Source of the DNA: an uncultured Gammaproteobacteria bacterium
GTDB taxonomy: Bacteria; Patescibacteriota; Microgenomatia; UBA8517
Reading direction: 5' to 3'
NCBI GenBank assembly: GCA_964541395.1
Contig: CAZIPM010000004.1
Coordinates: forward strand, 1,188-65,187
Length of the DNA: 64,000 bases
Every line of letters starts with the position of its first letter. The stretch's first letter is position 1. Positions 29,568 to 58,741 of the stretch are shown piece after piece. Both the position numbers and the translations under genes were made by a program. The notes beneath the pieces were generated by a model. The model did no database searches. It was given only the letters and a program-made list of their open reading frames with translations, and was not told where the DNA came from.

Positions 29568-29800
29568 TTTTTAAAGCAGGAAACAGCCCATTTGTGGTTT
29601 CAATTCCACCTCAGGTTGCCAGAGATGTCAGCTTTACTCATGGGATTAGGGTTACTGTGAGTAAAGTGGGTGAAGATGCAGTAATTATTAAAAAAGTCAA
29701 AAAACAAACAACTTCTGTATCTCCAGTAAACAAAGAGTTCAACAATTGGATGAAAGGGGTTTTGAAAGAAGATGCCGAAATTCTCGAAGAACTTGCTTAA
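29552..29800 (+). CDS. AbrB/MazE/Phd-type antitoxin
   Basis: FKAGNSPFVVSIPPQVARDV swapped-hairpin pattern; overlaps doc. Confidence 0.55.
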   Translation: MQIQTIFKAGNSPFVVSIPPQVARDVSFTHGIRVTVSKVGEDAVIIKKVKKQTTSVSPVNKEFNNWMKGVLKEDAEILEELA

Positions 29801-30176
29801 GTTAGGCATAGATGAAGTTTATGTTATTCATGAAGCTATAATTAAACAAGCAGGTACGAAAGCTTTTGTCCGTGATTTTTCATTGCTTCACTCAGCAGTA
29901 GAAAGACCTTATGCAACATACGAAGGACAGGACCTTTATCCGACTATATTTTTGAAAGCGGGCGCAATTTTACAATCTATCTGTCTAAACCATCCGTTTA
30001 CAGATGGAAATAAAAGGACAGCATGGCTTTCTGCAAAAAGATTTTTGTGGATTAATGGATATCACTTGTCAAGTCACACAAAGGATACAGTAGATTTTAT
30101 GTTAAATGTAGATAATAAACATCCAAAGTTGGTTGAAATTTCGTTATGGCTTAAAAAACATTCAAAGGCACTTTAA
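29772..30176 (+). CDS. doc: Doc (death-on-curing) Fic-family toxin
   Basis: HPFTDGNKRTAWL matches the Fic/Doc HxFx(D/N)GNKR motif. Confidence 0.85.
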   Translation: MPKFSKNLLKLGIDEVYVIHEAIIKQAGTKAFVRDFSLLHSAVERPYATYEGQDLYPTIFLKAGAILQSICLNHPFTDGNKRTAWLSAKRFLWINGYHLSSHTKDTVDFMLNVDNKHPKLVEISLWLKKHSKAL

Positions 30177-32771: not shown

Positions 32772-33326
32772 TTAGGGCATATTGCCGAAGCTGATGCTCG
32801 TCGCGTCACTGGGGATACTGACTGAAACAATTTTGCCAGGAGTAATGATAGTTTTCACTATCTCTCCAGACTTATCTGTCCAGACAACATGCCAGTAACC
32901 AAGTCGAACGAAAACTTCGACCTTCTCTCCCGCACAAAAGCGAATCGAATTGTCAAATTTCAAACAACCGTTTCCGCCTCTGGCAAAAACCGTCCTGGCA
33001 GCTGTTTGGGCATACCAACCTTTCCCTTGCGGTTCAGGAAAGACGATTTCAGTAGGGATAGGTGTGTTTGTTGGTGGCAATGTTGCTGTTGTCTGCTCGG
33101 TCACCGTGACCTTAAGTAAAGCTTCCAATGCCACTTCTGGATCCGGCTGCTTAAAAGCGGCCATCAATACCAGAATAGTAGCTACAACCCAAAGGATGGT
33201 GATAACCAAAACGGCCACACCTTTTTTTCCTCGGGCTGTTTTGCTTCCACAGTTGGGGCAACGAATTGCCTTTTTTGGTAAATCCGCACCACAATCAACA
33301 TTTTTGCAAAACTGTAACTCGTCCAT
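32772..33326 (-). CDS. zinc-ribbon membrane protein with C-terminal beta-rich domain
   Basis: CKNVDCGADL...CPNCGSK zinc ribbon, one TM, Thr/Pro linker. Confidence 0.45.
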   Translation of the reverse strand: MDELQFCKNVDCGADLPKKAIRCPNCGSKTARGKKGVAVLVITILWVVATILVLMAAFKQPDPEVALEALLKVTVTEQTTATLPPTNTPIPTEIVFPEPQGKGWYAQTAARTVFARGGNGCLKFDNSIRFCAGEKVEVFVRLGYWHVVWTDKSGEIVKTIITPGKIVSVSIPSDATSISFGNMP

Positions 33327-33595
33327 TTTATTTCTCCTTTTGACTATTTTGAATACGACGCAAAAACTTCAAATAGAAATAACTTAAAATCTATGTGCCG
33401 TATTCAACAGCCTTTGGGAGAAACTTTAACTACACACTATATTTTAAAGAGCTAATTTTATTTAAAGTTACCCTAGAGCAAACTCTATTAAACCTTAAAT
33501 AACTAAAAATATTATCCTATAGCTATGTTTTAAAGTCAGGACAAACGGGAGACAAAACGAGGTTAAATCAATGTTTAAGCGTAATACCTTAAAAT

Positions 33596-34591
33596 TTGTG
33601 TTATATTTTAGTCATGGATTTTTTCAAACACCCTTACTACAAAGAATTTAAAATTTTCTGTAATGTGGCTTATAAGCAGAATATGAATGTAATTCTTTTA
33701 AGTATACCCAGTATGAGTGTGACTTTTTTTATCAACAAATTATTAGAAGAAGATGCTGAGGGTATTTATAGTGTTGTCAATGAAAGTGGCCAAAAAAACG
33801 GTAGATTTACATTTCTAGATTTGGACTATTCAAGACAATCTAAAAAAGCACTAGATTTGACAGATTCCTATTTAAGCTCTGCATCCAGTCAGGATAAATT
33901 CATGGTAGTTATCGACAATCCTCATATATTAGACACAGACAGTTTTAAGAAGAGTTATCTGGCTAACCATTTTTATAAAATCTTTTACTTTAAGCCATTA
34001 GATTTTGATTTGATAAAGATGTTTGCCTTGAATATGAAAATTAAAGTATCTAATGATGAAATCGAGCAAATTTTAAACCTTAGTGGAGGAATCAGTTCAA
34101 TCGTAAAATACCTTCTGGCTAATCAGGAGCTAATTGGAAACCCTGTTCAAGGATTGGTTAATAATCAGGAGTTTATTAAATCAATCCATTTAACTATTGA
34201 AATGATAAGAAAATCCAGAATTTCGTATTTGGAAAAGTTGGGTATATTAGAAAACAGAGAATTTAAAAGTAAAATGATACAAAAGTATTTTGAAAATCAA
34301 AATATTAATCTTGTTGATGTATTAATAGGTAAGGATTTAAGCTTTGAAGAAAATGGTTTGCTAAATTCGGAAAGACTTCTTAAATTAGAAAAAGAAATTA
34401 TTGAATTTACTATCGAAAACAATGGAATAATTTCAAAAGAAGATATAGCTGATATAAAATGGGAAAAAGATAGCTATGATTCTTATTCTGATGACGCAAT
34501 CGTTAAAACCATGCTCAGGTTGAATAAAAAGCTACAGAGGTATAAATTCATATCTGTTCCAACGCTTGGATATCAACTAATAAATAAATGA
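33596..34591 (+). CDS. hypothetical regulator-like protein: degenerate ATPase/REC-like N-region plus C-terminal OmpR/PhoB-type winged helix
   Basis: C-terminal ...ISKEDIADIKWEKDSYDSYSDDAIVKTMLRLNKKL fits the trans_reg_C pattern; N-region has hhhhD and LSGGIS elements but no intact Walker A. Confidence 0.4.
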   Translation: MCYILVMDFFKHPYYKEFKIFCNVAYKQNMNVILLSIPSMSVTFFINKLLEEDAEGIYSVVNESGQKNGRFTFLDLDYSRQSKKALDLTDSYLSSASSQDKFMVVIDNPHILDTDSFKKSYLANHFYKIFYFKPLDFDLIKMFALNMKIKVSNDEIEQILNLSGGISSIVKYLLANQELIGNPVQGLVNNQEFIKSIHLTIEMIRKSRISYLEKLGILENREFKSKMIQKYFENQNINLVDVLIGKDLSFEENGLLNSERLLKLEKEIIEFTIENNGIISKEDIADIKWEKDSYDSYSDDAIVKTMLRLNKKLQRYKFISVPTLGYQLINK

Positions 34592-35658
34592 CCGATTTAC
34601 TAGAAATAACTGAAACAGAAATTTCAACCGCTCCAGATCGACACTTTAAATACCTTAGACCAGAGATTCCACTTATTAAAGAGGGATTTACCATTGATCG
34701 AATTTTGATCGAGGTAGATAGGATAACCGGTTTTGCTGTTGAAATAATAAAATTTCCTGATGTAGATGAGTTAAATGGAAGGGATGGAGTACACGTGTGT
34801 ATTATTTCAAACAGTAATTATCCGTACTCAAGCCCCATGAGCCGTTTTGGAGAAAAGCTTAAAGGTTCAAATTCAAAAATTGAAGTTTCCCAAATGAGTG
34901 AAGCACAAAAGCAGAGGTGGAATCATTGTAGAAATATATTAAAACTTCCCTATGAAGTGTCTGCTCAACTAACATTTAATGATTCGGAAAGAAATCTGTC
35001 AGGATGGATTGTCCCTGATGAGGATGTTGTACCTACAAGGCTGATTTCTTTGAATGGATTGGTTAAATCTGGTAAATCTTTAATAGCAGCCTTTTTATCT
35101 ATTAAAGAAGACCTTCCAGTTTTTAGCCTGGACAAATTTTCGGTTTACACAGTTGATGCTTATTTGGAGGAACTTAAAGCCAATGGAATATCTAAAGATT
35201 CAAACGCTGCAGAGTTTATTAAAGTAATAAGCGAATTCATAAACAGGAATCCTAAAAGGAAAATGGATAATCGAAGTGCAAAATCGCTTAGGGAAACTCT
35301 TAATGAATTAACTAATTTTTTTGAGAAAGGGTACAGACCAAAAGTAATGCTCATAGACGGGGTGGGAGACAAACCTGAAGGAGTAATTCCTCTAAATGCA
35401 TATCATTTGGCAAGTTTATATGGATCAGAGGCGTCTATATTAATAGAAATTCCAGAGTTAGCAAATAATTTAGACCTTTTTGAATATGGAAGGCTAGATG
35501 TTAGACAAGAAGTACCCCCATATTTTGTCTTCTACAGGATTAGACACCCAGGGGTAGGAAGATATACTGGTGATATAGATACCAGAATTCTTCCTGATTC
35601 ACTTGATGTACTTTTAACTGAATTCAGAAATAAAATAAAAGAGAAAAGTGATTTTTAG
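34588..35658 (+). CDS. P-loop NTPase (dNK-like kinase fold) with uncharacterised ~150-aa N-domain
   Basis: Walker A NGLVKSGKS; DKFSVYTVD resembles dNK ERS(V)YSD; R/K-rich lid-like segment; hhhhDG Walker B (KVMLIDGVG); ATGA-coupled to upstream gene. Confidence 0.5.
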   Translation: MTDLLEITETEISTAPDRHFKYLRPEIPLIKEGFTIDRILIEVDRITGFAVEIIKFPDVDELNGRDGVHVCIISNSNYPYSSPMSRFGEKLKGSNSKIEVSQMSEAQKQRWNHCRNILKLPYEVSAQLTFNDSERNLSGWIVPDEDVVPTRLISLNGLVKSGKSLIAAFLSIKEDLPVFSLDKFSVYTVDAYLEELKANGISKDSNAAEFIKVISEFINRNPKRKMDNRSAKSLRETLNELTNFFEKGYRPKVMLIDGVGDKPEGVIPLNAYHLASLYGSEASILIEIPELANNLDLFEYGRLDVRQEVPPYFVFYRIRHPGVGRYTGDIDTRILPDSLDVLLTEFRNKIKEKSDF

Positions 35659-35884: not shown

Positions 35885-36595
35885 TTATTTTCCTAGAGTT
35901 GCCGAAATTAAATCTGGTCGGAAGTCTGTTTGTGGTTTGCGTAACGGAGTTTCAAATGTTTTTTTAAAACCATCCCTCGCCGAACTATCTGGAATAATTG
36001 GAATAGAGTACATGTCTATATTTTTATAGTTAGCAGTAACCCCTTTTTGTACGTTCGGATCTTTATACCTTACAAGGTCATAACCCCAAATTACAGACAG
36101 CTCGACAGGTACTTTAAAGACACCTTGGGCAAAGTTTTCAGCCTCTTGTACAAATAAAATCTCGTTTAAAGGTATATCTGCAGCGCTTTTGATATTTGGA
36201 TTAGTGATCAAGGCGATATCTTGATCACTAAACCTCCCAGGTGTTTTATTAGGATTAACTCTACTCCCATATAAAACTAGGCCAGCGAAGGTATTAGGAA
36301 ATTGGTATTTTAGATATAATGATGTTATAAAAGCATCAATTTTTAATTTAAACCTACTTGGATTTTTACTTTTATCACCTAAACCTAAAATAGATTCGAT
36401 TTTAGCTCTAATCGCAGCTTCTGGGATTTCTTCTTGAGTATACATATTTTCAAACTGGTCAAATCGTTGTGCCAGCTCATCAATTTGATTAAATGTCGCA
36501 TTCCCTATTTCTTTAGGAGATACCAAATTATGATTGACCAACTTATCAATATTATGTGCCTCAGTAATTAAGCCATCGCTAGGTACTATGTCCAT
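35885..36595 (-). CDS. Pol-beta-superfamily nucleotidyltransferase-like protein
   Basis: LYGSRVNPNKTPGRFSDQDIALI matches hG[GS]-x(9-13)-Dh[DE]h. Confidence 0.4.
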   Translation of the reverse strand: MDIVPSDGLITEAHNIDKLVNHNLVSPKEIGNATFNQIDELAQRFDQFENMYTQEEIPEAAIRAKIESILGLGDKSKNPSRFKLKIDAFITSLYLKYQFPNTFAGLVLYGSRVNPNKTPGRFSDQDIALITNPNIKSAADIPLNEILFVQEAENFAQGVFKVPVELSVIWGYDLVRYKDPNVQKGVTANYKNIDMYSIPIIPDSSARDGFKKTFETPLRKPQTDFRPDLISATLGK

Positions 36596-43231: not shown

Positions 43232-43501
43232 TTGTATACTACAGGCATGAAACTTGGAAATTTTAAAAGTGCTGAAGAAGCAGCTGAAGCACTAATGGGT
43301 GTAACTAATGGACATCAACACGCTTTAGGTTCAATACTGGAACTCGCTTCTTTAGAAGAAATGGACCTTAAAAAAGCAATTGATTTTGTCAAAGAACGTG
43401 GAGTACCTTCTGATAAAACAGAAATAATTGGTTGGTGGCGTGAAAATATGAACAAAATCCGAGGCCAGGTGATAATGAAGGGTGGAGAGTTTGGAGAGTA
43501 A
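43232..43501 (+). CDS. hypothetical protein
   Basis: 89-aa ORF overlapping next gene start. Confidence 0.35.
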   Translation: MYTTGMKLGNFKSAEEAAEALMGVTNGHQHALGSILELASLEEMDLKKAIDFVKERGVPSDKTEIIGWWRENMNKIRGQVIMKGGEFGE

Positions 43502-44033
43502 AGTGTATTATGTGTTTCAGATCATGGAATTTAATCTAGAAAAAAGAAATTGGTGGGGATATGTAGAAGAAGATCTGCAAAAACTTCTTGAATCTTCAGT
43601 TTTTCTACTCAATGTATCCAGAAGTTGGGGAGCAGACTTACCTAATGGTAGAAAGGCTTTTCATGATTATTCATTCTGTGTTTTTCCAGCAGCCAAAGCC
43701 TATGAAGGATTTTTGAAAAAGATGTTTTTTGATATGAAATTCATAACAGAAGCAGAATATTACGGTAAACATTTCAGAATCGGTAAAGCATTAAATCCGT
43801 TTCTGGAGAAAAAATACAGAAGAGAGAGTGTCTATGACAGAGTGGTAAATTATTGTGGTGGAAAAGAGCTCGCAGATATTTTATGGGAAGCATGGAAGAA
43901 TGGCAGGAATTTAGTTTTCCATTGGTTTCCGGAAGAAAAAAAAGTAATATCTTTTGAAGAAGCTGGAAAGTTAATAGAACAGATCCTGTCTGCAATGGAC
44001 AAAATGTCTACTGAGTGTAAAATAAAATTGTAG
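43482..44033 (+). CDS. hypothetical protein
   Basis: 183-aa ORF; no motif. Confidence 0.4.
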   Translation: MESLESKVYYVFQIMEFNLEKRNWWGYVEEDLQKLLESSVFLLNVSRSWGADLPNGRKAFHDYSFCVFPAAKAYEGFLKKMFFDMKFITEAEYYGKHFRIGKALNPFLEKKYRRESVYDRVVNYCGGKELADILWEAWKNGRNLVFHWFPEEKKVISFEEAGKLIEQILSAMDKMSTECKIKL

Positions 44034-58664: not shown

Positions 58665-58737
58665 GGCCCGGTAACTCAGTGGTCAGAGTGCCGTCCTTAT
58701 AAGACGGAAGTCGATGGTTCGAGCCCATCCCGGGCCA
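58665..58737 (+). tRNA. tRNA-Ile (anticodon UAU)
   Basis: Cloverleaf folded by hand: GGCCCGG acceptor, perfect anticodon stem CCGTC/GACGG with loop CTTATAA (TAT), T-loop TTCGAGC. Confidence 0.8.
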
Positions 58738-58741
58738 CATT

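Follow-up and report, generated by a model that had tools for sequence, protein, structure and literature searches.

Two-component systems of the OmpR/PhoB type pair a histidine kinase with a response regulator, in which a receiver domain governs a winged helix-turn-helix (wHTH) output domain. The operators of such regulators have a recognisable layout: PHO boxes are direct repeats with an 11-nucleotide (nt), 7+4 geometry (PMC4415409), and PMC4832192 describes binding by Mycobacterium tuberculosis PhoP to 7-bp direct repeats with a 4-bp spacer. Here we describe a locus in which this operator geometry stands upstream of an unusual gene pair. It lies in a 64,000-nt stretch of contig CAZIPM010000004.1 (positions 1,188 to 65,187; this whole stretch is called the window) and consists of two overlapping genes, gene 1 (G1) and gene 2 (G2), with a conserved control region before G1. 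By sequence comparison the two genes represent two new protein families, and the control region is a new cis-element. We put the chances at about even that the pair constitutes a self-contained module for transcriptional signalling, known so far mainly from Microgenomates-type members of the Candidate Phyla Radiation (CPR). The CPR, or Patescibacteria, makes up a large share of bacterial diversity, and most CPR proteins have no assigned family; to our knowledge, almost nothing is known about CPR gene regulation. The two genes are as follows.

33614..34591, plus strand: G1, 325 aa; predicted AAA+-fold pseudo-ATPase with a C-terminal OmpR/PhoB/ToxR-type winged helix
34588..35658, plus strand: G2, 356 aa; N-domain without a match, followed by a predicted intact P-loop kinase-type NTPase domain

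A listing of open reading frames (ORFs) gives 33596..34591 (plus strand, 331 aa counted from a TTG) and 34588..35658 (plus strand), confirming the ATGA overlap noted in the original prediction, which had been made from the letters of the window. The 331-aa length given there for G1 needed correction: TTG 33596 sits within a conserved extended -10 promoter element (33599-33607), and no Shine-Dalgarno (SD) sequence is present, so we reassigned the start to ATG 33614, giving 325 aa. The AT-rich spacers that had been put at ~270 and ~230 bp are real and measure 287 bp upstream and 226 bp downstream, with ~29% GC across the 300 nt before the G1 ATG; the 64-kb window as a whole has ~36% GC and carries genes of small-chromosome type, among them an aldolase, a PfkB kinase, a 2-hydroxyacid dehydrogenase and two class A penicillin-binding proteins (PBPs). 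A near-identical contig is known from a groundwater metagenome. Every motif quoted in the original prediction is present, and the pair is novel, as it had proposed: the window G1 and G2 proteins gave nothing significant in Pfam, NCBIfam, PADLOC or PHROGs (0 families for either in PADLOC-DB v2 at E up to 1), tblastn returned no phage matches for G2 and no plasmid matches for G1, and full-text literature searches yielded no matching description of the pair. We considered whether G1 and G2 might be paralogues of each other and rejected this (hhalign probability 0.5%).

The control region carries three elements.

33511..33521, no strand assigned: box ATTATCCTATA, whose minus strand gives a GATAAT -10 hexamer; putative promoter of the divergent gene
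33539..33571, plus strand: direct repeats GGACAAACGGG and AGACAAAACGA and a degenerate third unit GGTTAAATCAA, in 11-nt phase; putative operator for the G1 wHTH
33599..33607, plus strand: extended -10 TGTTATATT, whose end is 6 nt from the G1 ATG, without an SD sequence

When the upstream DNA of the window was aligned with that of loci L003 and L001 (L-numbers label loci and P-numbers proteins), non-coding conservation exceeded that of the genes, whose proteins are 63% and 48% identical. The elements follow one another in the order ATTATC[CT]TATA box, 26 nt, GGACAAA-like repeats, extended -10 and G1 ATG. The box lies 72-111 nt upstream of the G1 ATG in 13 of the 14 loci discovered through their proteins, and the spacing from its TATC to the first repeat is always 26 nt. 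Two to four 11-nt units, each of seven GGACAAA-like bases plus four variable ones, are present in 13 loci, with a consensus over 30 units of G23 G29 A29 C28 A30 A23 A20 and then 4 variable positions. In a phase control across the 13 protein-discovered loci, 31 half-site units fell in phase, against 0-3 at each of ten other offsets. The phased pair occurs 18 times in 255 kb searched on both strands, and 14 of these sites are in the 130 nt that precede G1; in the window the exact phased pair is unique, and 2-mismatch matches occur at chance level. The 11-nt-phased 7+4 array is locked to the G1 promoter region.

Closer to the gene, 18/21 distinct loci have an extended -10 (TGnTAnnnT) that ends 5-13 nt ahead of the ATG, at 5-7 nt in 15 of them, and an SD-like sequence is absent in 20/21. 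Because the extended -10 ends just before the ATG and no SD is present, the G1-G2 mRNA is probably leaderless. Between the last repeat and the -10 of G1 itself the spacing is variable, at 0 to ~35 nt. A search of the spacer for known RNAs in Rfam gave sub-threshold noise only. The spacer also holds the word ACYTTAAA at 33461, 33492, 33529 and 33586, two per strand (4 in 287 bp vs 0.09 expected); we considered it as an operator and rejected it, as it is not conserved in orthologous regions.

As a reciprocal test, the DNA module alone was scanned against 241 million metagenome records. This returned 34 loci, 18 of them with a G1 starting 30-70 nt downstream. G2 was found in 14 of these 18, and in three of the remaining four the contig ends before G2 would begin; in L033, where G2 was not detected, ~100 nt are left past the G1 stop. 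Beyond the 18, the scan found ~10 canonical three-repeat modules, at least four of which (L035-37 and L046) are on contigs that carry a G1 elsewhere. L053 and L056 have canonical three-repeat modules on short contigs without G1 and with a different gene downstream; because their module, like that of L030, is almost identical to the one in G1-bearing L041, they may be second copies resembling the duplicate in L016, or extra regulon sites. L030 is one of three module loci that run off the contig end, the others (L031 and L045) being canonical three-repeat modules. About five distinct sequences from the scan look like chance.

Two of these loci deserve separate mention. L054 has a complete module with extended -10 and ATG, followed after ~185 nt by a transposase-like ORF, and no G1 is detectable there; by eye the ORF resembles an IS200/IS605-type transposase and may be an insertion into G1. 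In L016 the ~70-bp module is duplicated almost identically (L016:6874-6945 and L016:7875-7950) on either side of a minus-strand 312-aa gene, and the upstream copy faces a lipoprotein-like gene and may be an extra regulon site.

Because the repeats have PHO-box geometry and a wHTH of the OmpR/PhoB type is encoded immediately downstream, we infer that G1 binds them. The control region also appears to face the other way. Read from the minus strand, the box gives an invariant GATAAT, which lies 6 nt (L016) and ~0 nt (L014) from the ATG of the divergent gene, and with the 26-nt offset the first repeat comes to lie immediately upstream of the -35 of this putative minus-strand promoter. The repeats keep a fixed offset to the divergent promoter, as activators need, which suggests that G1 activates the divergent gene. 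In the window that gene is the following.

32772..33326, minus strand: 184-aa protein with a zinc ribbon and a single transmembrane (TM) segment; candidate G1 target, not universally conserved

A homologue occupies the same position in L001 (26% identity, E 8e-9), and two zinc-ribbon protein genes adjoin the module in L036 (also in L035 and L037). TM-like segments are present in the divergent genes of 10/11 loci, compared with 74/187 in the background (Fisher p ~0.001).

The protein that would read these repeats is predicted, from its motifs and its modelled fold, to be a pseudo-ATPase of AAA+ fold across the whole G1 family. An AlphaFold2 (AF2) model built from an alignment of five sequences (predicted local distance difference test (pLDDT) 84, predicted template-modelling score (pTM) 0.71) has a five-stranded alpha/beta domain (the base, ~residues 1-130), a helical domain of ~100 residues (the lid, ~131-228) and a C-terminal winged helix (~236-325). 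Foldseek matched it in the PDB to RuvB (E 4.5e-6), RFC subunits, archaeal Cdc6/Orc1, DnaA and MoxR-type (NorQ/CbbQ) ATPases, with AAA+ matches spanning all three domains at a probability of 0.97-1.0 and a sequence identity of 7-15%; response regulators rank lower and match through the wHTH alone (RegX3, RitR). Aligning 14 non-redundant homologues gave [ST]hPGhGx[ST][HYF] (SIPSMSVTF in the window) at the Walker A position, which lacks its Lys in 14/14; the glycine-rich 'PGxGxS' loop is preserved despite this loss. The Walker B position holds D, N, H, T or S, then N, T, D or E, then P, and its acid is not conserved (N, H, T or S in most of the 14). The lid motif is SGG without an Arg, the sensor-2/arginine-finger Arg being absent in 14/14. 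With the ATPase motifs lost across all 14 homologues, G1 would therefore be a pseudo-ATPase throughout the family. AAA-type Pfam families gave a single weak match, to the MCM P-loop in 1/14 homologues (E 1.8e-3), and no homologue of the 14 matched the Response_reg (REC) domain; of the degenerate STAND/AAA or receiver-like region originally proposed, the degenerate AAA+ part stands and the receiver falls away.

The C-terminus is the best-conserved part of G1 and bears out the OmpR-type wHTH that had been recognised there. Pfam Trans_reg_C (PF00486), the sole family matched by more than one homologue, matches 5/14 with a best E of 1.5e-8 (P0008 lies just above the gathering score, at 26.6 vs 26.2 bits), and the PDB matches of the G1 family profile are exclusively OmpR-type DNA-binding domains (ToxR, CssR, SaeR). 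In the AF2 model (pLDDT ~90 here) strands (E) and helices (H) run E236-238, E244-246, H257-268, H275-283, H292-306, E310-315 and E319-324, a topology that fits the OmpR/PhoB type with its N-terminal beta-sheet, three helices and C-terminal beta-hairpin wing. Elsewhere in the family, a one-base frameshift in a T7 homopolymer splits G1 in L003 (L003:283-316), either as a sequencing error or as a real pseudogene; a split G1 in L002 was considered as a pseudogene and rejected, the split being a scaffold gap of Ns.

G2 is predicted, from sequence motifs and a structural model, to be an intact P-loop NTPase of small-kinase type. Its AF2 model, built from a 46-sequence family alignment that also provided the conservation counts below, reached a pLDDT of 82 and a pTM of 0.85. 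The NTPase domain covers ~residues 150-352, and from residue 151 the order is beta1, P-loop, alpha1, beta2, three-helix insert, beta3, alpha, beta4, lid, beta5 and helix, which is the layout of small P-loop kinases, with the lid modelled at low confidence. The Walker A motif GxxxxGKS occupies residues 157-164, and D182, R250 and D257 follow.

K163 (Walker A): conserved in 46/46
S/T164 (Walker A): conserved in 46/46
D/E257 (Walker B, end of beta3): conserved in 46/46
D/E182 (after beta2): conserved in 42/46
Y192: conserved in 40/46
R250 (before beta3): conserved in 36/46
D58 (N-domain, FPDxDG): conserved in 42/46
P121 (N-domain, LKLPxxLA): conserved in 42/46

The Walker A and Walker B motifs first read in the window are thus family-wide, through K163 and D/E257. 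R250 is the sole conserved Arg outside the N-domain. In the segment that had been called dNK-like, or ERS-like, there is no ERS triad, and the acidic D/E182 is all that is conserved.

Foldseek placed dephospho-CoA kinase (DPCK) at the top (E 4.3e-4), ahead of adenylate, shikimate, thymidylate and deoxynucleoside kinases, and a viral structure library returned the same kinase classes. The G2 family profile matched AK9, TT1252/CoaE, a Fap7-type adenylate kinase (AK) and DPCK in the PDB, all around the P-loop, and in the profile alignment D182 falls on the second Asp of 'LDLD' in TT1252/CoaE. In CoaE-type kinases the Asp after beta2 is the catalytic base. The kinases nearest to G2 by fold act on nucleotides and cofactors, through matches that are remote. 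Among the 46 members, Pfam gave scattered sub-threshold hits in a minority (AAA_22, AAA_16, AAA_18, AAA_33, SKI, dNK and CoaE), with CoaE, dNK and SKI each weakly matched by 1-2 members (E 0.008-0.012). The N-domain of ~130 aa (~residues 30-131), with its near-invariant FPDxDG and LKLPxxLA motifs, gave no significant match as a separate profile against the PDB. Foldseek, the PDB profile and the N-domain profile together agree with the earlier description of a P-loop kinase-like protein with an unmatched N-domain. No stretch of the G2 alignments was conserved enough for back-translated scanning. One relative, P0033 (L022:188-2545), is a 785-aa protein that follows G1 with a 4-nt overlap and has a 477-aa N-terminal extension, for which neither Pfam nor the PDB gave a match.

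Both families are rare and, where organisms are named, found mainly in Microgenomates-type Patescibacteria. Word-indexed searches of 5.8 billion proteins found four relatives of G1 and two of G2, to which a G1 profile added two; among 1.84 billion representatives, searched exhaustively by profile, 55 G2 relatives reached E <= 1e-3, almost all of them 300-365 aa long, and a scan of one genome per species gave 13 loci. Eight locus titles name Shapirobacteria, Woesebacteria or the Microgenomates group, one the Patescibacteria group and one a 'bacterium', and two are Gammaproteobacteria metagenome-assembled genomes (MAGs), L009 and L018, whose labels are probably wrong. L009 scores the same as the groundwater loci L004-L007 in both hidden Markov model (HMM) scans.

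G1 and G2 sit side by side, in translational coupling, with one lineage as the exception. In the HMM scan a G2 on the same strand comes straight after G1 in 20/20 loci where the contig continues, down to a G1 identity of ~28%, and the G1 C-terminus was immediately upstream in 4/4 distant G2 representatives looked up independently. The gap or overlap between the two is at most ~6 nt in the loci compared. The original prediction had named separation of the pair in other genomes as evidence against it; the two genes proved to be adjacent in every locus examined for this. Clustering of neighbours (BLASTP, 1e-5) gave no third conserved gene, and flanking synteny is common to the closest genomes only. 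Pfam families among 65 neighbouring proteins include MreB, FtsH, PBP, PRPP synthetase, RNase J, ribosomal proteins and ABC transporters, and the 25 families listed for these proteins include no integrase, transposase or defence family.

The exception is the group L035-37, in which a G1 homologue resembles Trans_reg_C at its C-terminus (E 1e-4), stands 2.4 kb away from a canonical module and has no G2 after it. Here an ATPase with AAA_14 and DUF4143 domains (L036:1632-3733, also in L035 and L037) precedes and overlaps the G1 homologue. With this partner in place of G2, G1 seems to need an NTPase partner and G2 seems to be more than cargo, which suggests that G1 works with a dedicated NTPase partner. 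In Shapirobacteria UBA2283, two G1-G2 pairs (L020 and L021) lie ~10 kb apart on contig DDWP01000001.1; the module is therefore open to paralogous duplication within one genome.

We propose that G1 would bind the repeats head-to-tail, as PhoB and PhoP do on PHO boxes, with its pseudo-AAA+ body providing oligomerisation and sensing. From this site it would autoregulate the leaderless G1-G2 transcript and also activate the divergent gene, whose product in most cases is a membrane or secreted protein. G2 would be the input component, setting the activity of G1 with ATP. It might phosphorylate a small hydroxyl-bearing ligand whose product docks in the 'PGxGxS' loop of G1, or it might act on G1 directly, or form a complex with it, through its private N-domain. 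Either way, the part played in a two-component system by the histidine kinase and the receiver would fall to a P-loop kinase and a pseudo-ATPase. A regulatory role was one of two options raised for the pair at the outset, and the conserved operator upstream of G1 supports it strongly.

A bolder version of this model is doubtful, and we offer it as speculation: G1-G2 would be a new class of signal transduction in which G2, a cytosolic P-loop kinase sensing through its N-domain, replaces the histidine kinase, the dead AAA+ body replaces the receiver, and an OmpR-type output acts on PHO-box-like repeats at envelope-protein genes of ultra-small CPR bacteria. The glycine-rich loop of G1 would then accept a phosphoryl group, a nucleotide or a phospho-ligand.

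Several observations weigh against the proposed signalling module. Its main weakness is how G2 acts on G1: contact between G1 and G2 and ligand binding by the vestigial loop of G1 are both putative. The kinase assignment is a second weak point, since no Arg in the low-pLDDT LID of G2 (~residues 288-311) is conserved at >=70%, so that the 'R/K-rich lid' once read there is not a family feature, and the structural matches are all remote (E no better than 4e-4, TM-scores 0.2-0.45); for these two reasons G2 may be an NTPase switch instead of a kinase. On the side of G1, the window protein matches nothing in Pfam, Trans_reg_C included, at E up to 1, and its link to the repeats rests on co-occurrence and geometry. 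The cis-module is not recognisable in L015. The box could alternatively be a plus-strand -10, which would place the repeats in a 5' untranslated region as a repressor roadblock or an RNA element. Finally, the divergent genes are non-homologous across lineages, and in the window 185 nt separate the box from the start codon of the divergent gene.

We ranked four other explanations in the order regulator plus cargo, PezAT-like toxin-antitoxin pair, anti-phage defence, and replication initiator with iterons. Under the first, G1 would be a repressor of the usual autoregulating kind and G2 a kinase of salvage or metabolism, acting on a nucleoside, nucleotide, cofactor or sugar imported by an auxotrophic CPR cell, with no link back to G1. 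The closest folds to G2 are indeed those of metabolic small-molecule kinases (dephospho-CoA, nucleoside monophosphate (NMP), deoxynucleoside and shikimate), the pair sits amid housekeeping genes, and the operator accounts for co-expression without any G1-G2 interaction. Metabolic enzymes, however, are rarely bound in every lineage to one private regulator at 20-28% identity with a gap or overlap of <= 6 nt, and G2 also carries a further conserved N-domain bearing invariant motifs. A simple repressor, likewise, has no need of a large conserved pseudo-ATPase body, and in one lineage a non-kinase ATPase stands in G2's place beside G1. On this evidence we think it unlikely that G2 is a passenger of its regulator.

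Still less probable is a toxin-antitoxin system of the PezAT or epsilon/zeta type, with G2 as a toxic kinase of an essential metabolite (for example a peptidoglycan precursor) and G1 as a DNA-binding antitoxin and repressor. Several features are shared with such systems, namely a DNA-binding gene placed first and overlapping a kinase gene, an autoregulatory operator of the kind typical of type II toxin-antitoxin systems, a rare and patchy distribution with two pairs on one contig, and the presence in the window of nearby cell-wall genes (PBPs, beta-lactamase-like) and Fic/Doc. Yet Zeta toxin is a P-loop-level PDB match only (E 0.02), Pfam Zeta_toxin does not rank with the 25 families hit most often by the 46 G2 members, and PADLOC gave no match. 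G1, with 325 aa and a structured AAA+ body, is unlike small labile antitoxins; synteny is stable in related genomes, with no mobile elements among the neighbour families listed; and the operator keeps a fixed geometry to the divergent promoter, which suggests that a third gene is activated, as is not the case in toxin-antitoxin systems.

The original prediction had also raised the option of a defence module, which we consider very improbable. G1 would here be a STAND/AAA+-like sensor and G2 a nucleotide-modifying effector. A STAND-like layout of nucleotide-binding domain, helical domain and winged helix, with a weak Foldseek match to Avs4 (E 9e-3), would suit this role, depletion or modification of nucleotides by a kinase-like effector is conceivable, and the family is rare and lineage-restricted. 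Against it, PADLOC, PHROG, phage and plasmid searches gave no matches, and the neighbours are core housekeeping genes and form no defence island. G1 is predicted to be incapable of ATP hydrolysis, which defence STANDs generally require, and a wHTH with a conserved promoter operator fits a transcription factor better. A replication or partition element, with G1 as a Cdc6/Orc/DnaA-like initiator on iteron-like repeats and G2 as an accessory NTPase, is the least probable of all: Cdc6/Orc1 and DnaA are among the best structural neighbours of G1 and tandem direct repeats do lie beside a ~29% GC spacer, but G1 lacks every ATPase motif that initiators use, there are just two to four short repeats of PHO-box geometry between two promoters, cumulative GC skew climbs smoothly through the locus with no switch, and the locus has no plasmid or phage relatives and occupies varied chromosomal positions.

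Some features of the surroundings stand apart from the module. The orphan nucleotidyltransferase (NTase) reported beyond G2 corresponds to a 236-aa ORF on the opposite strand (35885-36595, minus) that resembles Pol-beta/MNT-type nucleotidyltransferases at motif level (E 0.02-0.1); we rejected it as a module part, because it is not retained beside the pair in other loci, and searches of family libraries and the PDB gave nothing significant. In L011 a beta-lactamase-like gene lies directly in its position, and the NTase-like ORF may be an insertion. A Fic/Doc-family protein (29772-30176, plus strand; E 6e-17) is encoded ~3.4 kb upstream of the pair, and ~8 kb downstream an ORF at 43482-44033 (plus strand) weakly resembles RnlA/RNase LS-like HEPN proteins (E 6e-5). 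These toxin-type genes are dispersed through a region otherwise given over to housekeeping functions. The window also encodes a tRNA-Ile with anticodon TAT (58665-58738, plus strand), an uncommon tRNA among bacteria: for AUA codons most of them rely on a CAT tRNA modified with lysidine.

Sequence comparison has been enough to outline a complete, testable CPR circuit at this locus: a transcription factor, an operator predicted to the base pair, predicted leaderless promoters for both directions of transcription, a candidate target gene and a dedicated enzymatic partner. If G2 does control G1, it would follow that an OmpR-type output can be driven without a receiver domain and a histidine kinase, and a dead AAA+ module would gain a function as a signal receiver. 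Even on the conservative reading, two new protein families and a new cis-element become available for annotating CPR genomes and reading metatranscriptomes.

Set against known systems, the output logic of the locus, an OmpR-type domain on PHO-box-like repeats, is familiar, and the input half, a pseudo-AAA+ body with a P-loop kinase-like partner, is new. Like PhoB, PhoP, KdpE and PmrA of the OmpR/PhoB family, G1 ends in a Trans_reg_C-type wHTH, and the predicted 11-nt units (7 conserved plus 4 variable positions), at or just upstream of a -35, resemble PHO-box operators (PMC4415409, PMC4832192) in a placement of the autoregulation type. Unlike these regulators, G1 has neither a receiver domain nor a phospho-acceptor Asp pocket, its N-terminal 230 residues forming an AAA+ base and lid, and its partner is a P-loop kinase-like protein where two-component systems have a histidine kinase. 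G1 shares the base, helical lid and winged-helix layout of RuvB, Cdc6/Orc1, clamp-loader subunits and DnaA, and differs from RuvB, Cdc6 and DnaA in having lost the ATPase motifs in 14/14 homologues and in a winged helix of OmpR subtype with an N-terminal beta-sheet; the clamp-loader delta/delta' subunits are naturally inactive AAA+ members. G2 resembles the CoaE, NMP-kinase and deoxynucleoside-kinase fold in its Walker A, beta2 Asp, Walker B acid and helical substrate subdomain between beta2 and beta3, and departs from it in the extra ~130-aa N-domain, the lack of conserved LID arginines and the absence of any recurrent Pfam kinase family. With PezAT and omega-epsilon-zeta the pair has in common its gene order, its overlap, a DNA-binding first gene with presumed autoregulation and a P-loop kinase second; it differs from them in that homology of G2 to Zeta/PezT is not detectable beyond the P-loop, that G1 is a large structured pseudo-ATPase, and that a stable chromosomal context comes with a divergent third promoter built into the control region.

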